This document shows, one piece after another, positions 2,740-30,351 of a stretch of 32,000 nt of DNA (the first letter of the stretch is position 1; every line of letters begins with the position of its first letter). Position numbers and translations under genes: made by a program. The notes beneath the pieces are model-generated. The model did no database searches, was not told the DNA's origin, and saw only the letters and a list, made by a program, of their open reading frames with translations. The DNA is from Caedibacter taeniospiralis. GTDB taxonomy: Bacteria; Pseudomonadota; Gammaproteobacteria; Francisellales; Francisellaceae. The stretch is taken from contig NZ_PGGB02000007.1 of the NCBI RefSeq assembly GCF_002803295.2, forward strand, positions 1 through 32,000, in the 5' to 3' direction.

Positions 2740-4530
2740 ATGTCTGACATTCAACATAAGATCAAAATACTGCGTCAATTGATGGATCAAAAACAATATG
2801 ACTTTTACCTGACTCCCTCAACCGATGCGCACAATAATGAATATCTCCCCAAAGCCTGGCAGCGAAGACCATGGATTAGTGACTTTACTGGCAGCGCAGG
2901 TGAGGCACTTGTTGGTCACAAGGAGGCGCACCTTTGGACAGATGGACGCTACTTTCTTCAAGCCGAAACGGAACTCGATAGCTCCATTTATCAACTACAA
3001 AAGCAACAAGGCTACATTTCTGAGTTTGAAAACTGGCTTGAAATCCATGCTTATGGTAAAACCCTTGCTATTGATCCAACCACACTTTCCATTAAACGCG
3101 GACAGACCATAAATGCACTGATGCACAAGCTTCGTGGAAAGTGCGTTTTTGATAAAAGCAATTTGATCGATGAGGTGCGCAGGTTATGCAACGAAAGCAC
3201 CGACTTACCTCATGGCAAAGCGTTTTTACAAACGCTACAATTCAGTGGCAAAGAAACGCAGGTTAAGCTTCGCGAAATTCGAAATAAACTCAATGAACAT
3301 CGTGTTGATGCGCTTGTGATCAGCGTACTGGATGAAATTGCCTGGCTGCTAAATATTCGTGGACATGATATTGAATTTAACCCACTACTTATAAGCTATG
3401 TCATTGTCAGCGAAGCGCATTGCCAGTTTTTTGTCGATGAAACAAAGCTTGATGATCATATCAAACAAAATCTTATATCTCATGGCGTTGAGATTCTGCC
3501 GTATGAGGACTTTTATGATGCGCTTAAGCATCTTAATGTTAGAGTATGGATTGATGCTAACACCGCTAATTATGCCATATTGCAATGCTTAAACCGTGAA
3601 GCCAGTCCCTATTTTGCTCAATCTCCCATCGTTTTAATGAAAGCATGCAAAAATATCGTCGAAATCGATGGCAGTAAACTTGCTCACAAGAAAGACGCTA
3701 TTGCCATGATTGAGTTTATTTATTGGCTTGAGAATAATTGGCAACAAGGTGTTGATGAGCTTAGCGCACAGCAGAAGCTGCTTGAGTTTCGCCAAAAACA
3801 ACCTCATTTTAAAGGTGCTAGTTTTGACACCATCAGTGGTTTTGCCAGTAACGGGGCAATCATTCATTATCGCTCAAGCAAGAAAACCTCAAAGATAATC
3901 GATGATAGCAACCTCTATCTTCTGGATTCAGGGGGACAATACTTAGAAGGCACAACAGATATAACCCGAGTATTTCACTTAGGCATCCCTATGCCCCTAC
4001 ACAAACACTATTACACCTTGGTGCTCAAAGGACATTTAGCCCTTCAAAATATGAGCTTCCCAAAAGGCACTAAAGGCGAGCAATTAGATAGCTTGGCACG
4101 CCAGCCATTATGGCAAGAACAGTTAAACTACGGGCATGGCACGGGTCACGGAGTTGGCAGCTTTTTATGTGTCCACGAGGGCCCACAACGCATTTCTCCC
4201 GCTTTTAGTAATCAGTCCCTTGAGCCTGGCATGATTGTCAGCAATGAGCCTGGCATTTATTTCCCAAATCGATTTGGCATACGCATCGAGAACCTGTGTT
4301 TTGTCAAAAAACTAAAAGAGCAGGCTCACCATGAGTGTGGCGAGTTTTACGCCTTTGAGGATCTCACCTTAGTGCCATATGCCCGAAATTTAATTGCTAT
4401 TGAGTTATTAACCCATAATGAGATCAGACAAATCAATAGCTACCACCTGCGTGTTGAAAAGGAAATCATGCCAATGATCAGCAATGAGAAAATTAAAACA
4501 TGGCTAGGCAATCAACTGAAACCCTTATAA
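2740..4530 (+). CDS. Xaa-Pro aminopeptidase, M24B family (long form, 596 aa)
   Basis: Shows the M24 pita-bread metal-ligand motifs (DSGGQY, DITR, HGTGHGVG, NEPGIY, IRIEN) after creatinase-like N-terminal domains. Confidence 0.85.
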   Translation: MSDIQHKIKILRQLMDQKQYDFYLTPSTDAHNNEYLPKAWQRRPWISDFTGSAGEALVGHKEAHLWTDGRYFLQAETELDSSIYQLQKQQGYISEFENWLEIHAYGKTLAIDPTTLSIKRGQTINALMHKLRGKCVFDKSNLIDEVRRLCNESTDLPHGKAFLQTLQFSGKETQVKLREIRNKLNEHRVDALVISVLDEIAWLLNIRGHDIEFNPLLISYVIVSEAHCQFFVDETKLDDHIKQNLISHGVEILPYEDFYDALKHLNVRVWIDANTANYAILQCLNREASPYFAQSPIVLMKACKNIVEIDGSKLAHKKDAIAMIEFIYWLENNWQQGVDELSAQQKLLEFRQKQPHFKGASFDTISGFASNGAIIHYRSSKKTSKIIDDSNLYLLDSGGQYLEGTTDITRVFHLGIPMPLHKHYYTLVLKGHLALQNMSFPKGTKGEQLDSLARQPLWQEQLNYGHGTGHGVGSFLCVHEGPQRISPAFSNQSLEPGMIVSNEPGIYFPNRFGIRIENLCFVKKLKEQAHHECGEFYAFEDLTLVPYARNLIAIELLTHNEIRQINSYHLRVEKEIMPMISNEKIKTWLGNQLKPL

Positions 4531-4560
4531 CTCGATTACGCACTTTTGCTGGTTTTTAAA

Positions 4561-4676
4561 CTACCCCGTCAGCCTGCGGCTGCCACCCCTTCACCAGTGA
4601 AGGGGAATAAGTGATAAGCTTTCCGAAAATTCCCCTTCACTTGGTGAAGGGGTGCCGAGCTTGCGAGGCGGGGTAG
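4561..4676. repeat. Inverted pair of 48-bp REP-like palindromic units (4561-4608 and 4629-4676) between the convergent aminopeptidase and uvrD genes; a likely bidirectional terminator structure
   Basis: Unit 1 is ctaccccgtcagcctgcggctgccaccccttcaccagtgaaggggaat and unit 2 is its imperfect reverse complement. Each contains a 9-bp hairpin ccccttcac/gtgaagggg. A third unit lies at 12892-12939. Confidence 0.8.
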
Positions 4677-4710
4677 TTCAGCAAAAATGCGTACTTACAG
4701 TCATAATTTT

Positions 4711-6891
4711 TCATAACTTTGATAGTTTCGCCATTTTAGCCAGCAATACTTTTCTGCCTCCCCCTGCCTTAAAGTCAATGTGATAGCATAAATCATCCCC
4801 CAGCCCCTCCGTCTTTAATATCACGCCTATGCCAAATTTGGGGTGGGTCACAAAACTTCCTGTTTTAAATTGTGACTGACTCTCTTTTTGCTGCATGTTG
4901 ACAAACTCAAACGGTGATATGCCAAAGCCAGCTGCTGTTGGGGCGGCTCGCTGTCTGATTTCGTGTAAATACGCTTTGGGGATCTCACTCAAAAAGCGCG
5001 ACTTAACCTGATAATTGACATTGCCATATTGATGGCGAACTTTACTGAAACTCAGTGTTAAATGGCGCATCGCACGCGTAATGCCTACATAGCAAAGTCT
5101 ACGTTCTTCGGCAAGTTTATCCGCATGTTCTAGTGAACGCGAGGATGGAAATAAACCATCTTCAAGTCCACCGATAAAAATATAAGGAAACTCAAGTCCC
5201 TTTGCAGTGTGCAAGGTCATAAGCTGCACCGCCTCACTATGATCATCGGCTTGCATTTCTCCCGACTCTAAAACAGCAAAACTTAAAAATTCAAGCAGTA
5301 AATCCTCCTCATCAACCGCTTCAATAGGAGGAACAAATTCACTAGCGGCATTGACAAGTTCCTTTAGGTTTTCACATTTTTGCTGTGATTTTTCTGATTT
5401 AGAGGCTTCATACATCAGGCTCAAGCCACTGGCATCAATCACATGACGCATCAGCTGTCCCAAACTTAACGTATCTTTTAATGCTGCCATGTCTTCAATT
5501 AAGCTGATAAAACGCCCTAGCGCCTGTGCTGAGCGACTGGGTAACTGGTTTGTATCTATCATTTGTACCGTTGCCTGCCAAAGCGATAAACCGTGCAAAC
5601 TTGCATAGTCACGAATATTATCCAGGGTTTTCAAACCAATCCCACGCACAGGCAGGTTGACCACGCGCTCAAACGCCAGATTATCTGCTCTTAACGCAAT
5701 GAGGCGCATGTAGGCCAAAGCATCTTTAATTTCAGCACGATCAAAAAAGCGCAAGCCACCATAGATTCGATAGGAAATACCGAGTTTTAACAGCGCTTCC
5801 TCAATGACGCGTGATTGTGCGTTAGATCTGTACAATATCGCAATGTGTGATAAGTTGATCCTTTGATTCTTGCTAAGATCCTGTATTTTTTGCACGATAT
5901 AATCCGCTTCATCGCGCTCGTTAAAGGCTTCATATACGGCAATTTTCTCGCCTTTTTCCTCTTTTGACCACAGCACCTTGCCCATGCGTTTACTATTGTT
6001 TGCAATGATGGCATTAGCAGCATCAAGAATGATTTGTGTTGAGCGGTAATTTTGCTCTAAACGCACGATTTTCACAGGATTTAGATCAGATAGAAAGTGT
6101 TCAATATTTTCAATTTTAGCCCCGCGCCAGCCATAAATTGACTGATCATCATCACCAACCGCCATAAAGCTATTGGAGTCAGACTTTAAGCACATCAGCC
6201 ACTTGTACTGTACTGTATTAGTATCCTGAAACTCATCGACAAGCACATAGTGAAAACGTTTCTGATAGTAACTCCTTAGGACTTCATTCTGCTTAAAAAG
6301 CTCATAGGCATATAACAGTAGATCAGCAAAATCCAGGGCATTATCGGCTTTTAATCGCGCCTCATATGCCTGGTAAATTTTAATCACCTCGCCATCAAAA
6401 TGGGCTTTAGGCAAATCAATAGCACGAATACCTTCATCTTTCTTGCCATTGATGAAGGCTTGAGAATACTTTGGCGGGTAGTATTTTTCATCTAAATTCA
6501 GGCTTTGAATGACTTTTCTAATCACTTGTAGCTGATCATCTTGATCAAGCACCTTAAAGTTACGATTAAAACCCATTTCTTGCGCATGCTGACGCAAAAG
6601 CCTGTGTGCGATGCCATGAAAGGTGCCAATCCACATGCCAACGGTTGAAAATCCAAGTAACTCTTCAACTCTACCGCGCATTTCTCTTGCGGCTTTATTA
6701 GTAAAAGTCACCGCTAAAATATTCAGTGGTGAAACGTTTTTTTCCTGACACAAGTAAGCAATTCTATGGGTTAGCACCCGTGTTTTACCACTTCCAGCAC
6801 CCGCTAAGATGAGCGCATTTTCATTATTTAACAACACCGCTTCCTGCTGTGCTGCATTTAGAGATTCAATATTTTCAATAATAACAGACAT
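4711..6891 (-). CDS. uvrD: DNA helicase II (UvrD)
   Basis: 726 aa. Has Walker A AGAGSGKTRVLTHRIAYL, the SF1 helicase motifs (DEFQDTN, VGDDDQSIYGWRGA, QNYRS, TLHTAKGLEF, YVGITRA) and a UvrD-length C-terminal tail. Confidence 0.9.
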   Translation of the reverse strand: MSVIIENIESLNAAQQEAVLLNNENALILAGAGSGKTRVLTHRIAYLCQEKNVSPLNILAVTFTNKAAREMRGRVEELLGFSTVGMWIGTFHGIAHRLLRQHAQEMGFNRNFKVLDQDDQLQVIRKVIQSLNLDEKYYPPKYSQAFINGKKDEGIRAIDLPKAHFDGEVIKIYQAYEARLKADNALDFADLLLYAYELFKQNEVLRSYYQKRFHYVLVDEFQDTNTVQYKWLMCLKSDSNSFMAVGDDDQSIYGWRGAKIENIEHFLSDLNPVKIVRLEQNYRSTQIILDAANAIIANNSKRMGKVLWSKEEKGEKIAVYEAFNERDEADYIVQKIQDLSKNQRINLSHIAILYRSNAQSRVIEEALLKLGISYRIYGGLRFFDRAEIKDALAYMRLIALRADNLAFERVVNLPVRGIGLKTLDNIRDYASLHGLSLWQATVQMIDTNQLPSRSAQALGRFISLIEDMAALKDTLSLGQLMRHVIDASGLSLMYEASKSEKSQQKCENLKELVNAASEFVPPIEAVDEEDLLLEFLSFAVLESGEMQADDHSEAVQLMTLHTAKGLEFPYIFIGGLEDGLFPSSRSLEHADKLAEERRLCYVGITRAMRHLTLSFSKVRHQYGNVNYQVKSRFLSEIPKAYLHEIRQRAAPTAAGFGISPFEFVNMQQKESQSQFKTGSFVTHPKFGIGVILKTEGLGDDLCYHIDFKAGGGRKVLLAKMAKLSKL

Positions 6892-6894
6892 GAT

Positions 6895-7188
6895 TTATAC
6901 GCCATGGTGATGCTGTTGATTTAAGAGTGCCTCAAGGTGGTTAATTTTTTCTCTCAAATTTAAAATAATTGAAACTCCTGAAGAATTGACCCCTAAATCG
7001 CTCATTAAACGCCTGGCTGATTTAGCCCGTGCAATATCGTCTGCGACCACGTAGTAGATATTGTTTTCTAGTTGTGCATAAATCACCTCATGCTCTATCC
7101 ACTCCACAATAATCGTTTGTGGCACGCACAACATCTGCGATAGTTCAATGATGCTGATATAGTCCCCTTGCGCTCTTATTCTAGTCAT
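6895..7188 (-). CDS. cbpM: Chaperone modulator CbpM (MerR-like HTH)
   Basis: Small MerR-type protein immediately downstream of cbpA (the cbpA stop TAG at 7191-7193 is followed by GTG/ATG). GGAG lies upstream of the ATG at 7188. The ORF track starts one codon earlier, at a GTG (7191). Confidence 0.7.
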   Translation of the reverse strand: MTRIRAQGDYISIIELSQMLCVPQTIIVEWIEHEVIYAQLENNIYYVVADDIARAKSARRLMSDLGVNSSGVSIILNLREKINHLEALLNQQHHHGV

Positions 7189-7190
7189 CA

Positions 7191-8132
7191 CTACACTCCC
7201 AATAAGTCTTTACGCGGATCAAATGCCATTTCCTGTGCCATCTTCTGATAAAAGGCTTTTTGTGCATCAGAGACAGCAGGTGGCAAAATGACCTCTAAAA
7301 CAATATAAAAATCACCATCGGCTAAGCCCTTACCTTTTAAGCGCATTTTTTTACCACTTTGTGTGTGTTCTGGAATGTTAAGCTTCATAGAACCATGTGG
7401 AGTAGGCACCATAATGTCGGCACCTAGCGCTGCCTCCCATGGAGCGACGGGAATATGACTATAAATGTCGTTATTTACTACTTTATACTGTTTATCGGAT
7501 TGAACGCATACTTCTAAATACAGGTTACCATCTTGCCCGCCGCCAACGCCAGCTTCCCCCTGCCCTTTCAAACGAATTTGCTGGTGATTGCCAACAGCTT
7601 TGGGAATCTTAACTTTAAGTCGCTTGGTTTTTTCCATAATATGACCTTCTTGATTAAGAGTCTGATAGGTAAAATGCAGCTCACGCTCCACGCCTGTTAA
7701 AGCATCAGTCACTGAAATGTCGACTTTCGTATGCAAATCCTGCCCATTGATTGAAAAGCCTTGCTTTTGTTGACGCTGACGTGCACGTTGCTGGCGAAAA
7801 AATTCACCAAAAACATCTTCATAATCACCAAAATCACCGCTTTGGTAACGATATTGCTGAGAACTGCCAGATCCTCTATGGTGCGTTTCCTGTTGAAAGC
7901 CGTTTTGCCCAGCATGTTGCCAGTTTCTGCCATATTGGTCATATAATTTGCGTTTTTTGTCATCTTTTAACACCTCGTACGCATCCTGCACCTCCTTGAA
8001 TTTCTCCTCGGCATTTGCTTCTGTACTCACATCAGGGTGATATTTTTTTGCTAACCGACGATAGGCTTTTTTGATTTCGGCGTCAGTTGCTGCTTTTGCT
8101 ATACCCAAAACACTGTAATAATCTTTATCCAT
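7191..8132 (-). CDS. cbpA: Curved-DNA-binding protein CbpA (DnaJ-like co-chaperone without the zinc finger)
   Basis: J-domain DYYSVLGI...[11 protein letters not shown], a G/F/Q-rich linker and DnaJ C-terminal domains, with no CxxCxGxG repeats. The ATG at 8132 is preceded by taggaaaaaat. The ORF track begins at an upstream GTG (8153). Confidence 0.85.
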
Positions 8133-8201: not shown

Positions 8202-8858
8202 TTACTCATCCTCAGTTTCCACCACCCAATTCTCAGGCGGCATGAGATAAATTACTTTCCAGCCCGTTTCAGGCGAGTACTGGCTATCGGGTGAAGTCAC
8301 ATGAATCTGGTTTTTTTTATTGATATAAAAAAGCGGGATGGCTCTTTGGTTAAGCGATGCAAACTGTTCCCAAGTAAATCCATTACTAAGCGCTGTTGTC
8401 TTAATTTGCCCTCCTTGTTTAACAATGCTTCTTAAGATTTGATAGGATAGATCTTTGCTAAATAAACGTTGAGCATACTTTTTCGTTAAATAGTTTAACT
8501 TAGAGTTTGCTTTATTTTGTGCGGTTGGCAAAACAAACACAGAGACACGCCCATCAAACTCCCGATAATACTTCACCGCAGCTAGGGTATTCATCTGCTC
8601 GCTACTAGAGCAACCAAGCATACGCCCAATACCCACCAGGTTTAAATGCCAGTCCGCATGCTCCGATACAGAGCTCCCGTAATAGCAATTTAAGCCCTGA
8701 AGACGACAACCCTGCACACTGCGCCAGCTCGTATCCGCCATAACTACATGCACATCATTATTTTTCAATTCCTGGGCGATCGCTCTTGCTAAGGTATTGC
8801 CACCAATTATCAAGAAACCTCGTGGCTCAGGCACCGAGGCATGCAAAAGCCTTGCCAA
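8202..8858 (-). CDS. TrkA-N/RCK-like cytoplasmic domain; probably the C-terminal part of the upstream antiporter, separated by a frameshift
   Basis: Rossmann-like FLIIGGNTLARAIAQELKNNDVHVVMAD. It has only a TTG start, no convincing RBS, and overlaps the transporter ORF by 32 nt in a different frame. Confidence 0.6.
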   Translation of the reverse strand: MARLLHASVPEPRGFLIIGGNTLARAIAQELKNNDVHVVMADTSWRSVQGCRLQGLNCYYGSSVSEHADWHLNLVGIGRMLGCSSSEQMNTLAAVKYYREFDGRVSVFVLPTAQNKANSKLNYLTKKYAQRLFSKDLSYQILRSIVKQGGQIKTTALSNGFTWEQFASLNQRAIPLFYINKKNQIHVTSPDSQYSPETGWKVIYLMPPENWVVETEDE

Positions 8859-10071
8859 AATATGGAGCGGTTAGACTTTGAATGATTACCGTACCCAAAA
8901 TAACCATAAACACGATCAGGACAAGAAGCTCACCTTCTTCTGAAAAATGCAAATTCTCAATCACCTTGATGGAAAGCAGTGCTGCTACGGCAGCGGCAAC
9001 GATTCCGCGCGGCGCGATCCAGCTTACCATCACCCGTTCTGACCAGTTGAGTTCACTGCCTAAGGTTGAGATCCCTGCAGCAATGGGGCGCACGATGATC
9101 TGTAACAAAAGCACCAGAATAATGGCTTTCCACCAAACCGCTTCAAGGTGTTCAAAGCTTATATTAGCACCCAGAATAATAAATAAGTTTGAGATTAAAA
9201 TAAGGCTCAGTGATTCTTTAAAATCGAGAATCTCTTCAATATGTGCATTGGGCATATTGCCAACAATCACGCCCATAACTGTTACGATTAAAAGTCCTCC
9301 ACCTTCAACAATGCGCTCAGCAACCACAAAGCTTGTGATCACAAAGGACAGCACGAACATGTTATTCAGATATCCAGGAACCCATTGCCTTTTCAAAATA
9401 GTTCCCAGCAGGAAACCCGCGATCAGTCCGCCAATTCCTCCCACAATAAACACCAGCAAGATATGTGTGATAATATTCCAAAGCGCATTGTATTGGGACG
9501 CAGTAATCGCCGTAAAAACAATCACTGCCAAAAGTGCACCAATTGGATCAACCAGCATCCCTTCCCAGCGAATGACATTCGCAAGCTTTTCTGTTGGTCT
9601 TACACTGCGCAAAATCGGTACAACTACTGTGGGACCACTCACCGAAGAGATTGCACCAATAAGAGCCGAGACCTGCCAGGAAATATTGAAAATAAAATGC
9701 ACCAGAAGCGTAGTTAAAATCGCTGTGACCAGGAGTCCAATGGTTACAATATTTCTCACTGTTCCGCCTAAGCCTTTAATTTCTTTAAACTTCAAGCTCA
9801 TGCAGCCTTCAAACAGGATGACTGCCACGCAAATAGAAACAATCGGATAGAGTGTGTCTTTAAAGAGGAAAGTTGGACGTAAAAATTGGTAATGCTCACC
9901 CAAAACAAGCTGGCTCACAGGACCCAATACAATTCCAACGACCAATAAAAACAGGATTGCTGGCAATTTCATCCGCCATGCCAGCCATTGACAAATAAAG
10001 CCCAGCAATAAGATCACCATAAATACAACTGGGATATATGTGGTCGATGCGAAAAAATTATTTACTCCCAT
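8827..10071 (-). CDS. CPA1-family Na+(K+)/H+ antiporter, membrane domain
   Basis: 414 aa, roughly 11-12 predicted hydrophobic helices, and typical Na_H_exchanger sequence (LPAILFLLVVGIVLGP..., SWIAPRGIVAAAVA). The ORF ends abruptly where homologues normally continue into a cytoplasmic domain. Confidence 0.8.
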   Translation of the reverse strand: MGVNNFFASTTYIPVVFMVILLLGFICQWLAWRMKLPAILFLLVVGIVLGPVSQLVLGEHYQFLRPTFLFKDTLYPIVSICVAVILFEGCMSLKFKEIKGLGGTVRNIVTIGLLVTAILTTLLVHFIFNISWQVSALIGAISSVSGPTVVVPILRSVRPTEKLANVIRWEGMLVDPIGALLAVIVFTAITASQYNALWNIITHILLVFIVGGIGGLIAGFLLGTILKRQWVPGYLNNMFVLSFVITSFVVAERIVEGGGLLIVTVMGVIVGNMPNAHIEEILDFKESLSLILISNLFIILGANISFEHLEAVWWKAIILVLLLQIIVRPIAAGISTLGSELNWSERVMVSWIAPRGIVAAAVAALLSIKVIENLHFSEEGELLVLIVFMVILGTVIIQSLTAPYFGKAFACLGA

Positions 10072-10138: not shown

Positions 10139-10245
10139 GGCTTAGGCAAATAATTCGCCCAAGTGTGCCAGTGTGAGTAATCAGTGTCACACTCACAGCG
10201 ACAACTCACACTTAGTGATGGGCAGAAATGTAGTCATTGCCAAAA
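10139..10245. mobile_element. MITE-like palindromic element, intergenic copy (about 107 bp)
   Basis: Aligns end to end with 14405-14517 inside glnE (ggctt..caaataattcgcccaag...gtgtgagtaatcagtgtcacactcac...aactcacactta...ggc.gaaat.tagtca.tgcc.aaat). It has imperfect terminal inverted repeats (aataattcgcccaag..gtgtgagt / actcacactt..ggc.gaaat.t). Confidence 0.75.
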
Positions 10246-10255
10246 TGGCACTGCC

Positions 10256-11008
10256 TTAATTCTCTTGTCCATCAAGAATATCAAGAACCGCAGCATCACT
10301 ATCAAAACCACCTTCTGGTACTTTCTTAGGTTTTACCTGTAAGGTTTTCTCCAGCTCATAATCATAATTTTGCAAATACACATTACGTATGGCAACATAC
10401 GGATCAATGGCACTATTCACCAATTTTTCATAGCCACCAAGATATTGAACGCCTTCATTCACCTTATAAATACCCCAAGCCCCCCAGATAACTGCTTCTG
10501 GAAGATGCCCAACATAATTCAATGGATTAAACACGCCATCTATCAAATCACCTGTTGCGGCAGAAAACGTATAGGGTCCCAAAATGGGCACAACAAAATA
10601 AGGCGAATAACGATAACCCCATTTTGCAAGCGTAAACCCAAAGTTTTGCGTTCTTCTGGGCAGTCCCATGTTTTTAGCCACATCAAACAAACCAAACACT
10701 CCAAAAACACTATTGGCTAGAAGTCTTGCGGTATCTCGCCAGAGATAGTCAAAATTCCACTGCAATAAATCGTTGGCAACTCGCCCAGGTTCCAGAATGT
10801 TATTATAGGTGTTATTAACCCCTTGCTGCACCTGATCTGGCACCATATAATCGTAACCCTTAGCCACAGGGATAAGCGCATAATCATAAGTCACCTGATT
10901 AAATTTAAATATAACCCGATTGTACCCTTCCCACGGGTCTCTATCCTGCTGGGTTGCACAACCACTTAGCAAAAACATTGCCCAAAAACCTATTGCCTTA
11001 TATTTCAT
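10256..11008 (-). CDS. mlaA: Outer-membrane lipoprotein MlaA (VacJ)
   Basis: Lipobox LLSGC followed by the MlaA signature DPWEGYNRVIFKFN; 250 aa. Confidence 0.85.
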   Translation of the reverse strand: MKYKAIGFWAMFLLSGCATQQDRDPWEGYNRVIFKFNQVTYDYALIPVAKGYDYMVPDQVQQGVNNTYNNILEPGRVANDLLQWNFDYLWRDTARLLANSVFGVFGLFDVAKNMGLPRRTQNFGFTLAKWGYRYSPYFVVPILGPYTFSAATGDLIDGVFNPLNYVGHLPEAVIWGAWGIYKVNEGVQYLGGYEKLVNSAIDPYVAIRNVYLQNYDYELEKTLQVKPKKVPEGGFDSDAAVLDILDGQEN

Positions 11009-11122
11009 TTTTTACTGATTTTCCTCCTGTTGGCTGGCAGTATAACTTATTTTTCTATAAGACATCACTCCATTCTAAAGCTTTTACACATAATGTCTGG
11101 GGGATAACACAGCTCATAGGAT

Positions 11123-11191
11123 GGATAAGCCGAAGGCGCATCTGCCAATACCCAACCTGTTTGCTTTCTCGCGTGGATGCGCCTTCGGCTT
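11123..11191. repeat. Perfect 16-bp inverted repeat (aagccgaaggcgcatc / gatgcgccttcggctt) with a 33-nt spacer, in the mlaA-emrB divergent intergenic region
   Basis: The arms at 11127-11142 and 11176-11191 are exact reverse complements. The element is GC-rich relative to its surroundings. Confidence 0.8.
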
Positions 11192-11346
11192 GACCACCCT
11201 ACACGAAGTGCGTCATTAAGTTGACGGTCTATTGTGCGTTGATTGACACATAAATCAGTAAATGCCTTTACTGTTTGTAACTGGCTATACAACCCACAAA
11301 ATTACTTTTACAATCTGGTGTTTTAGCTTTAGGTGCTTTTACTTTA

Positions 11347-12867: not shown

Positions 12868-12891
12868 ATCAGTGTCACCTACGCTAAGACA

Positions 12892-12939
12892 CTACCCCGT
12901 CGACCTGCGGTCGCCACCCCTTCGCTTGCGAAGGGGAAT
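12892..12939. repeat. Third copy of the 48-bp REP-like unit, just after the MFS gene stop
   Basis: ctaccccgtcgacctgcggtcgccaccccttcgcttgcgaaggggaat has the same ends as 4561-4608. Both hairpins are preserved by paired substitutions. Confidence 0.8.
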
Positions 12940-13034: not shown

Positions 13035-15851
13035 ATGCAGTTTGATGAATTTTGCCAAAGCTTTGAGTTGACACACTTAGATATAAAAGTTTCAGCAAAA
13101 TTATTGAATACTTTTAACACCAGCTGCTTTTTTGCTCGTTTTATCCAACAACATCCCCAGCTTCTCAAGCATACCGATTGGTTTCTCATTGATGACATCA
13201 GTGTTTTGCAACAAGAAATTAAAGCTCTTTTTGCACAGAGCAAAAGTTATGATGAGCTTGCAAAGACTTTACGCAACTATCGCCAACAAGTGCATGCCAA
13301 ACTTGTGTTCCAACAGCATCATAAGATTGCCAACTTTGAGACTATTGCCGAGACTATTTCTGCTATAGCAAAGCATATTTTATTTTACGCACAACAATAT
13401 TTATTAAAAAAACTAAGTGAAACTAAAACCCTCCATAAACTCCCGCAAGATCTCGGTATCATCACCATGGGAAAGCTCGGTGGAAATGAGCTTAACTTCT
13501 CTTCTGATATTGACCTTGTGTTCATCCAGGTAAATAACGACCCATTGACAGACCACCTTGGTAAAACCTATAGCGCCATGCGTTTTTATACTGAGCTTGG
13601 TCAAAAGCTTATTGCCTTACTTAATGAAACGACAATCGATGGATTTGTTTATCGAGTTGATATGCGTTTGCGTCCCTTTGGTGAGGGCGCACCTTTAGTC
13701 ATCGATATAGAAAGCTTTAAACATTATCTTATGAATCATGCGCGAGCTTGGGAGCGCTATGCTTATATTAAAGGCGACATTTTACATCCATCTCATCAGG
13801 TTAAAGAGATATTAGATCACATGATCAAGCAGTTTGTTTATCGCCATTACCATGACTATCGCATGCTGAATGCTATTCGTGAGATGAAACAAAAAATCTT
13901 ATCCGAAATGAAACAGGTAAACTTAACAGACAACATAAAATTAGGTCGTGGTGGCATTCGTGAAATCGAGTTTATCTGTCAATGCTATCAGTTGATTTAT
14001 GGCGGTCAAAATATCACTTTGCAACATCGTAAGCTAAAACAAGCACTGCGTTCATTAACCCATGCTGAGGTTATTTCTGTCGATACTCAAAAATATCTCT
14101 ATCAGCACTATGTTTTTTTGCGCAACGTTGAAAATGCCCTGCAAATGTTTGATGATCAACAAACGCATCAGCTGCCAAGCAGCAAGCACACACAGAACGC
14201 CATCGCCTGCTTATGCGGTTTTGATGACTGGCAAATGCTTATCACACAAATCACCCAGACAAGGGAAAAAGTGGCAGGGCTTTTTGACAAACTCACCCGC
14301 TTTAACCTCCATAACGTTGAGCAAATGCAAGACTCAGCAATCTCTGCCACCTTGATGACGGACAACACTCTCCCCGCCTGCGCTTATAATCATACGGAAA
14401 TTAAGGCTTGTACAAATAATTCGCCCAAGCGTATCGGTGTGAGTAATCAGTGTCACACTCACACTCACACTCACAACTCACACTTAGCAATTGGCGGAAA
14501 TATAGTCACTGCCGAAATTAACAACTTCTTTGCTGAACATATCCTTGCTCAAGAAGTTCTACCCGCTATTGAAGACTTAATTAACCTGTGTGTAGAGCGC
14601 TATCCACAGCTTTTAACCAATCTACTAAAGCTGCTGCATAACTTGAGCAAACGACAAACTTATTTATTTTTGTTCCTTGAATATCGCTCACATCATCTGG
14701 ATTTTTTGACCTTACTCAATCAAGGCGCACGAATCGTAGAAATACTAACGGAACACCCGTTTTTACTTGAGCGCGCATTCATATACAAACACCATGACGA
14801 AGTCTATATCGATATTGCTTATCTTCGCAGCAAACTGTACAGACACCTCCAAGCTATTAACCTTGAGGATGTCGAGGCTTTCTTAGAATGTTTGCGTCGA
14901 TTTAAGCTTGAACAGATATTTAACATTATCGTCAGTGAATCACAAGGGCACATATCCTTAATGGAAGCCAGTGATTTATTCAGTCATCTGGCAACCGTTT
15001 TAATTGAAATTGCCCTTGATGGAGCATGGCGTGAGATTTTTCGATATGTCGATATAACATCCGATCTACAGCAAGCTTATCGAGACTCTCTAGCGGTCAT
15101 TGCCTATGGCAAACTTGGCGGGCTTGAGCTCAGTGTTGCCTCTGACTTGGATCTGGTGTTTATTCATGATAAAACCCATACGGAATTATCCTCACGCTTT
15201 TTTGTGCGCGCTGTGCAAAAATTTGTCCATTTTATGCAAATTAAAACCTATCACGGCGCCCTGTACGATATTGATTTACGCCTGCGTCCTGAGGGAGATA
15301 ATGGTTTTATTGCCCCAGGTTTTGATCGCTATGAGGAATATCTTTATCACTCTGCCTGGACTTGGGAGCACCAGGCATTAACACGCGCACGCTTCATTTG
15401 TGGAGCCTCCCGTATTCAACAGAAATTTGATCAACTGCGTACTCAAGTTTTGTGTCAATCTCGTGCGCTTCCCGCGCTCAAAAAAGATATTCGTGAGATG
15501 CGCCAAAAAATGCGCACTCATCTACTTAAAGCTCCTTCGCATCTATTTGATTTAAAACAAAGCCCAGGTGCTATGGTGGATATTGAGTTTATTGCCCAGT
15601 TTTTTGCGCTTTATTATAGCCATAAAGTTCCTGCAATAGGTTACTACAGCGACAGTATTCGCATTATCCAAACCATCGAATCTGCACAGTTACTTGATAC
15701 TAAAACGGCAAACGTGCTGATTGATAACTATTGCTATTACCGTGATTTAGGGTTTAAATGCTACCTTCGCAAACAAGAAGCCGTTGTTCCCTTAGATACT
15801 TGTAAACAGAGAATGTTAGAAGTACAGGAAATATGGAGCAATCTATTTTAG
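13035..15851 (+). CDS. glnE: Bifunctional glutamine synthetase adenylyltransferase/adenylyl-removing enzyme GlnE
   Basis: 938 aa with two nucleotidyltransferase modules (GKLGGNELNFSSDIDLVF...RVDMRLRPFG and GKLGGLELSVASDLDLVF...DIDLRLRPEG). Confidence 0.9.
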   Translation: MQFDEFCQSFELTHLDIKVSAKLLNTFNTSCFFARFIQQHPQLLKHTDWFLIDDISVLQQEIKALFAQSKSYDELAKTLRNYRQQVHAKLVFQQHHKIANFETIAETISAIAKHILFYAQQYLLKKLSETKTLHKLPQDLGIITMGKLGGNELNFSSDIDLVFIQVNNDPLTDHLGKTYSAMRFYTELGQKLIALLNETTIDGFVYRVDMRLRPFGEGAPLVIDIESFKHYLMNHARAWERYAYIKGDILHPSHQVKEILDHMIKQFVYRHYHDYRMLNAIREMKQKILSEMKQVNLTDNIKLGRGGIREIEFICQCYQLIYGGQNITLQHRKLKQALRSLTHAEVISVDTQKYLYQHYVFLRNVENALQMFDDQQTHQLPSSKHTQNAIACLCGFDDWQMLITQITQTREKVAGLFDKLTRFNLHNVEQMQDSAISATLMTDNTLPACAYNHTEIKACTNNSPKRIGVSNQCHTHTHTHNSHLAIGGNIVTAEINNFFAEHILAQEVLPAIEDLINLCVERYPQLLTNLLKLLHNLSKRQTYLFLFLEYRSHHLDFLTLLNQGARIVEILTEHPFLLERAFIYKHHDEVYIDIAYLRSKLYRHLQAINLEDVEAFLECLRRFKLEQIFNIIVSESQGHISLMEASDLFSHLATVLIEIALDGAWREIFRYVDITSDLQQAYRDSLAVIAYGKLGGLELSVASDLDLVFIHDKTHTELSSRFFVRAVQKFVHFMQIKTYHGALYDIDLRLRPEGDNGFIAPGFDRYEEYLYHSAWTWEHQALTRARFICGASRIQQKFDQLRTQVLCQSRALPALKKDIREMRQKMRTHLLKAPSHLFDLKQSPGAMVDIEFIAQFFALYYSHKVPAIGYYSDSIRIIQTIESAQLLDTKTANVLIDNYCYYRDLGFKCYLRKQEAVVPLDTCKQRMLEVQEIWSNLF
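14405..14517. mobile_element. MITE-like palindromic element inserted in-frame in the glnE interdomain linker (about 113 bp)
   Basis: Sister copy of 10139-10245. It is translated as ...ACTNNSPKRIGVSNQCHTHTHTHNSHLAIGGNIVTAEI... between the two GlnE nucleotidyltransferase halves. Confidence 0.75.
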
Positions 15852-15894
15852 CGTAAGTTCAAAGCAAGTATTTTCAAGTGGTTCCAGGTCTTTA

Positions 15895-15954
15895 CTTCTC
15901 CCTTGATGGGAGAAGTCGCCAAAACGTGTTTTGGCGGATGAGGGAGAATTTTTT
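15895..15954 (+). terminator. Nested hairpin element followed by T6, downstream of glnE; a possible intrinsic terminator
   Basis: cttctccc(15895-15902)/gggagaag(15908-15915); 9-bp-arm palindrome cgccaaaac-gt-gttttggcg (15917-15936); a second gggagaa (15942-15948) followed directly by tttttt (15949-15954). Confidence 0.45.
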
Positions 15955-20819: not shown

Positions 20820-20975
20820 CCATCATAAAAAGGAGGAAATACGCCCGGGGGAAAGTGCAAAAGCCCTGAACTGCTTAAAAATACTTGCTTTGAGCGTGTG
20901 TTTCAATGTTTCTTGCATCGAACTCACGTTATACTAAGGCGCAAAAGTGTAGGACGATTCCTTAAAAATTCTTCA

Positions 20976-30101: not shown

Positions 30102-30217
30102 TATTCACCTTCTGGTCTATTTTATATTCTTGCTAAATGGCGTTGATCACATTTCTGCCCACAAAAGCATACTGAATACGCGCCAGCGTTTATTGGCTCT
30201 GACTATTTTTCTGCCCT

Positions 30218-30287
30218 CTGTCATCCTGCGCTAGGGGCGAAATATTTTTCGTCCCTGGCTGGATTCCCGCCTTCGCGGGAATGACAG
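30218..30287. repeat. 70-bp palindromic REP/MITE-like element in the greA upstream region
   Basis: Terminal inverted repeat ctgtcat / atgacag. Internal hairpins ggggcgaaa..tttcgtccc and attcccgc-cttc-gcgggaat. Confidence 0.7.
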
Positions 30288-30351
30288 CAATAAAAACGCC
30301 TGATATAAGAGATTACATCAGACCTTTTTCGCTTGATTTTTATGGAAGGCT

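Follow-up and report, generated by a model that had tools for sequence, protein, structure and literature searches.

Results

The element in glnE

The stretch analysed here (the window: positions 1 to 32,000 of contig NZ_PGGB02000007.1, assembly GCF_002803295.2, 32,000 nt in all) contains glnE, which encodes the bifunctional glutamine synthetase adenylyltransferase/adenylyl-removing enzyme, and, inside glnE, a short repeated element whose reading frame is continuous with that of the gene. A sister copy of the element lies in the spacer between mlaA and a Na+/H+ exchanger gene. A preliminary description, made from the letters of the sequence alone, had reported an element of about 110 bp at these two places, and had likened it to a miniature inverted-repeat transposable element, or MITE, inserted in frame between the two nucleotidyltransferase halves of GlnE. 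Our analysis confirmed this observation and supported its interpretation, and we put at about 0.9 the probability that the feature is an insertion of a small non-autonomous DNA transposon, i.e. a MITE. The features are collected in Table 1; the two copies are located where they had been described, but their ends have been refined to 14405-14513 and 10139-10241 (previously 14405-14517 and 10139-10245).

The GlnE protein is 100% identical to RefSeq WP_100550996.1, shows two matches to the Pfam family GlnE (PF03710) and one to PF08335, and retains both GKLGGxELxxxSDxDL motifs, which are invariant across 67 GlnE homologues. Translation of the open reading frame (ORF) runs uninterrupted across the element, as had been noted. 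The element and one copy of the flanking 8-bp duplication (GAAATTAA) together account for 117 nt, that is 39 codons (residues about 457-495) and not the 38 counted before. When these 117 nt (14405-14521) were removed in silico, the protein read ..HTEINNFF.. (NHTEINNFFAEH), matching (I/K)EI(D/N)xFF of the GlnE orthologues without the block, so that the removal restores the conserved EI(D/N)xFF motif. The insert, for which one predicted junction-spanning peptide is IGVSNQCHTHTHTHNSHLAIGGNIVTAEINNFFAEH, has two Cys and five His within 12 residues (C..C-H-T-H-T-H-T-H..H).

Alignment of orthologous GlnE proteins showed that the block is specific to the lineage and that its limits are those of the repeat. 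The closest GlnE (93% identity, from JGI metagenomes) contains it minus four residues. It is missing from the relatives that come next, at about 60% identity and 903-909 aa (that of Cysteiniphilum litorale among them), and from all the more distant homologues aligned, and the block-free relatives have no homologous segment in its place. The insert occurs in four independent assemblies of the clade, namely the window and the loci L008, L003 and L001 (L numbers denote loci on metagenome contigs). Because L003, which is syntenic with the window at about 96% nucleotide identity, carries both copies of the element at the same two sites, both insertions must predate the split between window and L003. 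The intergenic copy is also found at the same site in L020.

In a pairwise MAFFT alignment of about 110 nt the two window copies have a mean column identity of 87%, and BLASTN gives 80% identity over 114 nt (E = 3.5e-25); a repeat finder lists them as families D5 and D6. They share a 20-nt core, GTGTGAGTAATCAGTGTCAC, which is present exactly twice in the window and not once in 100 shuffles, and the difference in their lengths is a single 6-nt TCACAC unit. Their similarity stops precisely at the boundaries of the element, beside the target duplications, these boundaries having been set by reading the flanks against the wider family.

The element family

The family was surveyed by scanning metagenome contigs for exact matches to the 20-nt core, followed by a search with an nhmmer profile built from 11 copies. 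The scan returned 22 loci, in 15 of which the element matched along 50-103 nt (E = 1e-13 to 1e-34). The others (L004, L005, L013, L015, L018, L019 and L025) were discarded, having just 21-26 nt in common with the element, within an unrelated conserved gene. The profile added one diverged copy, L007:8189-8287. The family as it stands comprises 15 distinct insertion loci with distinct flanks, on contigs of 38-43% G+C, and the element is thus not confined to the two copies of the preliminary description. With 99.5-99.7% identity to the window, L020 and L008 represent the same organism. Among species-representative genomes there was no match to the 20-nt core or to the left terminus, the host lineage not being among these genomes, and a plasmid collection gave just a chance 21-nt match (E = 0.9). 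Around the seed matches, one further copy was found in roughly 90 kb of flank, so that the family probably numbers tens of copies per genome, not hundreds.

The consensus is 103 bp long (GGCTTGTGCAAATAATTCGCCCAAGCGTGTCGGTGTGAGTAATCAGTGTCACACTCACACTGACAACTCACACTTAGCAATGGGCGGAAATATAGTCACCGCC), with copies spanning 94-109 bp, and its only open frame, of 34-36 codons, has no similarity to transposases. Each of its ends matches sister elements at their termini, where these have good inverted repeats of 23 bp (17/23 in L011:4890-4966).

The evidence for transposition is direct. Perfect 8-bp target duplications flank the copies in glnE (GAAATTAA), L010 (ATCACAAT) and L024 (ATCATATT), and four more copies (L006, L011, L023 and the intergenic copy of the window) are flanked by sequences matching at 6-7 of 8 positions. 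In addition, one site was found in both a filled and an empty state: positions 1-1868 and 1972-2903 of L024 align at 97% identity to positions 5893-7760 and 7753-8684 of L027, and L027 has a single ATCATATT (7753-7760) and no element where L024 has the 103-bp element between two copies of ATCATATT. Both flanks of L024 thus map onto the one ATCATATT of L027, which amounts to an exact insertion with duplication of 8 bp. The target-site duplications and the empty-site allele together indicate that the element spreads by transposition. Small size, lack of a transposase gene, a fixed 8-bp duplication, dispersed copies and presence/absence polymorphism are the traits of a MITE. The element inserts with a staggered-cut duplication of 8 bp, and the transposase that mobilizes it presumably acts in trans.

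At least two other small families carry the terminus GGCnnTGAC.A..TTTCYGCCC around different interiors (a GGGCGTATTCAATACGCCC hairpin in one and a CTGGATTCCCGCCTTCGCGGGAATGACAG core in the other), with copies at window 30139-30290, L011:4890-4966, L007:11619-11710 and L023:8787-8900. The L011 copy, besides its inverted repeats, has a perfect 8-bp duplication, TACTTTTT. The common terminus and the L011 repeats and duplication suggest that one transposase mobilizes a modular superfamily of sister elements. L007:4376-4482 is a chimera, in which a left half of the glnE type, up to GTGTCAC, is joined to a right half of the CTGGATTCCCGCC type, and points to recombination between sister families.

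In-frame coding copies

Frame +2 of the glnE copy contains no stop, whereas the other five frames contain 1-5 stops each. As the 103-bp element and the 8-bp duplication sum to 111 bp, which is divisible by 3, the host protein gains 37 residues and is not truncated when the insertion has that frame and orientation; in glnE, the expansion of the hexanucleotide repeat makes them 39. Coding copies occur at three of the 15 loci, namely glnE, the gene of a PD-(D/E)XK AddB-like nuclease (L024, 924-925 aa) and that of a BioC-like S-adenosylmethionine-dependent methyltransferase (L012). In all three the element is read in frame +2, and the peptides, which are near-identical, have in common the pattern ..A(C/Y)(A/T)NNxxKR(V/I)GVSNQCHT..NSH..GGN(I/M)V... 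The filled and empty nuclease alleles encode proteins of 924 and 887 aa, 97% identical, separated by a gap of exactly 37 residues.

The remaining 12 loci lie in short intergenic spacers. With a coding density above 80%, this predominance of intergenic copies suggests that selection purges most of the insertions into coding sequence. Those that remain would be the ones in which the open frame happens to fall in a flexible loop, that is the linker between the adenylyl-removing and the regulatory/adenylyltransferase halves of GlnE, the interdomain loop of the AddB-like nuclease and, judging from sequence alignment only, the loop before strand beta-3 of the BioC-like enzyme.

A profile of the peptide retrieved nothing at E <= 10 from 5.8 billion proteins, and a 42-aa peptide retrieved only two unrelated repeat proteins from 1.84 billion representatives, short peptide queries being unsuited to such searches. 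A self-removing intron was considered and rejected, there being no match in Rfam, as was an intein, since 39 residues are far below intein size and no splicing motifs were seen on reading the insert.

Structural context of the inserts

Residues 74-420 of GlnE match PDB 1v4a (N-terminal domain) and residues 524-907 match 3k7d (C-terminal fragment), so that the insert falls between the two. The corresponding region of E. coli GlnE is reported to hold the first Q-linker (Jaggi et al. 1997). In an AlphaFold2 model of GlnE based on the 67-sequence alignment, the mean predicted local distance difference test score (pLDDT) was 89.5, and the sole segment below 50 was residues 433-486; the final residues of the insert join a helix (485-501). 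The flexible linker proposed earlier is a low-confidence internal loop of the model. Similarly, in the model of the nuclease (mean pLDDT 85.8) the one low internal segment, 579-629, surrounds the insert, and the methyltransferase insert stands between segments aligning to PDB 8x8i, just before the beta-3-equivalent strand. The models are consistent with inserts that are compatible with the host fold, the one in GlnE lying in a predicted disordered interdomain linker.

Evolution of the insert

The number of TCACAC units in the glnE copy varies among close relatives: the window has three (encoding HTHTHTH), L008, which is 99.5% identical, has two (HTHTH), and L003 and L001 (~96%) have one (HTH). 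The length changes in the glnE copy (-6 and -12 nt) are all in this repeat and are multiples of 3, while two indels of a single base each separate the orthologous intergenic copies. Substitutions between the window and L003 are given in Table 2.

Table 2. Nonsynonymous and synonymous substitutions, with the corresponding rates (dN, dS), between the window and L003
Region	Nonsynonymous	Synonymous	dN	dS	dN/dS
Insert	5	0	0.068		
glnE, whole gene	57	42	0.026	0.075	0.35
glnE, rest of gene	52	42	0.025	0.078	0.32
purL	67.2	204.8	0.023	0.285	0.08
mlaA	3	8	0.005	0.051	0.10
uvrD-like	45.2	90.8	0.027	0.223	0.12

Because the dN of the insert is close to the dS of the gene, the peptide sequence appears unconstrained, changing near the neutral rate, although the counts are small. 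Taken with the in-frame indels in glnE and the single-base indels in the spacer, this suggests that the frame is kept and the sequence is not. The GlnE peptide would then be a tolerated, essentially neutral passenger, whose sequence drifts under the sole requirement of an open frame, and in which the TCACAC repeat may slip in whole codons, giving a linker of strain-variable length. We hold this near-neutral status less firmly than the MITE insertion itself.

Other features of the window

The surrounding genes are as previously described, the calls for GlnE, MlaA and the Na+/H+ exchanger agreeing with Pfam. The spacer that hosts the intergenic copy is bounded by the mlaA stop (10256) and the Na+/H+ exchanger start (10071), both on the minus strand. 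A tRNA scan found no tRNA genes.

Table 1. Positions of the element copies and of associated features in the window
Feature	Position	Strand	Remarks
glnE ORF	13035..15851	+	938 aa; bifunctional glutamine synthetase adenylyltransferase/adenylyl-removing enzyme; host of the insertion
MITE copy within glnE	14405..14513	+	109 bp; only open frame reads ..ACTNNSPKRIGVSNQCHTHTHTHNSHLAIGGNIVTA..; nhmmer family profile E = 1.5e-31
Left 8-bp target-site duplication	14397..14404	+	GAAATTAA, read from sequence; identical to 14514-14521
Right 8-bp target-site duplication	14514..14521	+	GAAATTAA, read from sequence
In-frame hexanucleotide repeat	14453..14476	+	(TCACAC)3 + TCACAA; encodes HTHTHTH; length differs among strains
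Intergenic sister copy	10139..10241	+	103 bp; mlaA/antiporter spacer; flanks AAAATGCT / AAAATGGC, 6/8 identical; nhmmer E = 1.2e-30
mlaA ORF (MlaA)	10256-11008	-	Pfam-based gene call
Na+/H+ exchanger ORF	8827-10071	-	Pfam-based gene call
Cluster of sister-MITE termini/remnants	30139..30290	+	fuzzy terminus matches at 30139-30160 and 30195-30216; context like the complete elements in L011, L007 and L023

In the window (8202-10071, minus strand) two overlapping ORFs, of 414 and 218 aa, stand for the Na+/H+ exchanger, which L003 and the near-identical L020 encode in one ORF of 622-623 aa; the split is a frameshift, due either to a pseudogene or to a sequencing error. On the other side of mlaA, its upstream spacer contains a hairpin with 26-nt arms, 88% complementary (11117-11201), about 48 nt of which (11126-11174) are absent from L020, a metagenome contig 99.7% identical to the window. 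Another palindromic element, unrelated and about 120 bp long, has long arms (AACTACCCCG..CCACCCCTTCACCAGTGAAGGGGAAT) and lies at 4558-4680, downstream of the ORF at 2740-4530. L003, 96% identical, lacks it in the orthologous spacer, and a half-copy is located at 12891-12939, just upstream of glnE.

On the downstream side of glnE, L003 and L001 have a purT gene (396 aa; L003:12798-14006) between glnE and purL that is missing in the window (15844-15952) and in L008. A 35-nt inverted repeat, 80% complementary (15859-15893 and 20859-20893), flanks about 5 kb with purL and the genes downstream of it. Synonymous divergence between the window and L003 differs about six-fold among neighbouring genes (mlaA 0.05, glnE 0.075, uvrD-like 0.22, purL 0.29), which suggests recombination between lineages. 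Finally, the ORF at 32-1246 contains tandem 72-nt repeats (691-1120), present as four overlapping 139-nt copies, 60-87% identical, with relatives also at 1-174 and 1075-1248.

Discussion

Some points weigh against the reading of the glnE feature as a MITE insertion, or limit its reach. The imperfect terminal inverted repeats and the palindrome of the preliminary description are weak: the two ends of the element match each other at about 12/22, the common parts being GGC and TTCGCCCA/TGGGCGGAA, and the single-strand fold z-scores against shuffles are modest (-1.9 to -3.2, the latter on the minus strand). About 250 kb of retrieved loci yielded neither a transposase nor an autonomous parent. The census, based on an exact 20-mer, favours conserved copies, and its coding share of three loci in 15 is that of the metagenome contigs scanned. 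The translated insert and a working modified GlnE are themselves predicted from the sequence. The low pLDDT of the inserts reflects in part the shallow alignment depth there, and is partly to be expected, because few aligned sequences cover them. Lastly, glnE is under relaxed constraint in this strain pair, with a dN/dS of 0.35 as compared with 0.08-0.12 for neighbouring genes.

It is conceivable that the element acts mainly as a nucleic-acid signal (a structured small RNA, a terminator, an mRNA-stabilizing hairpin or a protein-binding site), its coding copies being incidental. The family consensus does fold into a 5' hairpin (GCTTG/CAAGC), doubly compensated in one copy (L023), and a central 9-bp stem (GGTGTGAGT/ACTCACACT), the z-score falls to -3.2 on the minus strand, and short intergenic spacers hold 12 of the 15 loci, as a signal of this kind would have it. 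However, there is almost no covariation (the covariation term, at +1.05, is unfavourable, with most pairs invariant), Rfam gave no match at the gathering threshold over the whole window nor at E <= 1 for the intergenic copy, and a promoter/terminator scan found no promoter-like or terminator-like site inside that copy. The duplications and the empty-site allele point, moreover, to transposition as the mode of spread. We therefore regard such a role as unlikely and, if real, as something that could coexist with the MITE explanation instead of replacing it.

Selection might instead have domesticated the insert, with the Cys/His-rich peptide giving the GlnE linker a new function such as metal binding or a tuning of the communication between the catalytic halves. 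The in-frame insert has been kept in four assemblies across about 4% nucleotide divergence, the two Cys and five His are clustered in 12 residues, and three enzymes tolerate the same peptide. Against this, the insert's five substitutions are nonsynonymous without exception, with a dN near the dS of the gene, the number of His-Thr units changes from 1 to 3 among near-identical strains, the untranslated intergenic copies have the same open frame, and the 97%-identical nuclease strain has no insert there. Domestication thus seems quite improbable.

We give equally little credence to the idea that glnE is decaying in this lineage and that the insertion is one lesion in a dispensable gene. The raised dN/dS relative to purL, mlaA and uvrD-like would fit, as would the adjoining Na+/H+ exchanger, frameshift-split in the window, and a G+C content compatible with a reduced-genome endosymbiont. 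But the 938-codon ORF is intact in four assemblies with indels in multiples of 3 only, both nucleotidyltransferase motifs are conserved, as are more than 100 invariant columns, outside the linker the AlphaFold2 model is a confident one, and a dN/dS of 0.32 for the rest of the gene still denotes purifying selection. Finally, a local duplication or gene conversion between glnE and the mlaA spacer, a similarity due to chance or low complexity, or an artefact of assembly, as might be imagined from the two copies alone in the window and the CACACT-type simple repeat in the element, is refuted by the metagenome copies and the L024/L027 pair, and is at odds also with the unrelated flanks of the 13 further loci, the ending of the similarity exactly at the element boundaries beside the duplications, the agreement of independent assemblies and the absence of matches in shuffles.

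Within the MITE reading, one might suppose that the element has been selected for survival inside the genes of a gene-dense, possibly endosymbiont genome, and that its hexanucleotide repeat, by giving GlnE a linker whose length is heritable and changes fast, tunes nitrogen regulation. The traits so selected would be a length that with the duplication is divisible by three, the single stop-free frame and a hydrophilic, loop-forming peptide. We consider this doubtful.

As a MITE insertion, the glnE feature is a clean case of transposon-derived sequence in enzymes, with exact boundaries, an empty-site allele, three independent hosts and length polymorphism among strains. It also offers a natural experiment, in which the interdomain linker of GlnE accepts 33-39 additional unconstrained residues. 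On the practical side, inserts of this type inflate protein lengths and could pass as lineage-specific domains in annotation.

Comparison with known systems

The host proteins are closest to those of Cysteiniphilum (56-62% identity), and the G+C content of the window is 41.5%. In a 2020 table of sequenced Fastidiosibacteraceae, Caedibacter taeniospiralis, an obligate Paramecium endosymbiont, stands alone with a value of this order (41.3-41.5%, the others having 36-38%), which would fit it as the source of the window. Fastidiosibacter lacustris was rejected as the source because of its G+C of 36.3%. The literature searched contained no report of MITEs in Fastidiosibacteraceae or in Caedibacter.

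As regards a possible parent, the target duplication of the insertion sequence IS1 is 8-9 bp. The terminus GGnnnTG is common to IS6/IS26 and IS1, and the duplication made by IS6/IS26 is 8 bp (PMC6807381). The right end of our element (GGCGGTGAC.., GGCAATGAC.., that is GGCGGTG, GGCAATG) fits this terminus, as the 8-bp duplication fits these enzymes, but its left end (GGCTTGTG.., GGCTTGT) does not fit GGnnnTG. The end of E. coli IS1 (GGTAATGACTCC) shows up to 12/23 matches to the right end, mostly in the first 10 bases, and TBLASTN of E. coli InsA/InsB against the retrieved loci gave no homologue, the IS6 transposase being outside this search. Termini and duplication are thus compatible with IS1- or IS6/IS26-type enzymes, which is a lead and not an assignment.

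Repetitive extragenic palindromic sequences and bacterial interspersed mosaic elements (REP/BIME) were considered and rejected as a class for the element: they are extragenic single palindromes of 20-40 bp without target duplication, whereas the element has 103 bp, several hairpins, 8-bp duplications and coding copies. Cases in which a small repeat is fused in frame within a gene are on record for the Rickettsia palindromic elements, ERIC-like repeats, pneumococcal repeats and the QMITEs of Coxiella. Among the intragenic ERIC and RU-type repeats and the pneumococcal BOX/RUP/SPRITE, there are small repeats whose open frame may become joined in frame to that of a host gene (PMC3184786). Our element shares this ability with them, but they are other sequence families with no evident common termini, and in most of the cases reported they extend the ends of genes instead of lying in interdomain linkers.

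Another counterpart is found in Coxiella burnetii, an intracellular gammaproteobacterium with the MITEs QMITE1 and QMITE2 (the latter of 150-190 bp, with 7-11-nt direct repeats), some copies of which overlap ORFs and add residues to them; in functional genes they lie at the 3' ends and replace the C-termini, and the in-frame cases in mid-ORF are in hypothetical proteins (PMC5896051). Both are gammaproteobacterial MITE families with direct repeats and with some ORF overlaps that add residues, but in the present family the insertions are internal, in well-characterized enzymes with intact domains on either side.

The parallel drawn in the preliminary description was with the Rickettsia palindromic elements (RPEs). 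In the passages of PMC10969869 and PMC3184786 that treat them (after Ogata et al. 2000), RPEs are repeats of roughly 100-150 bp found between genes and within unrelated housekeeping genes, always in frame, with a conserved peptide and at positions compatible with the fold. As far as those passages describe RPEs, our element behaves likewise, recurring in frame in unrelated genes, two more besides glnE, with a conserved peptide and at fold-compatible sites; the likeness is one of behaviour and not of sequence comparison. In its identity, the element is probably a different one: the host is a gammaproteobacterium with proteins closest to Cysteiniphilum/Fastidiosibacteraceae, which makes membership in the Rickettsia RPE families 1-10 unlikely, and the element shows clear 8-bp duplications and a filled/empty polymorphism, so that its transposon nature is directly visible. 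The family is thus new although its kind is known, namely a MITE with the behaviour of the RPEs; it is unusually well resolved, and it extends the selfish-DNA-in-genes behaviour of the Rickettsia type to a Fastidiosibacteraceae-like gammaproteobacterium.

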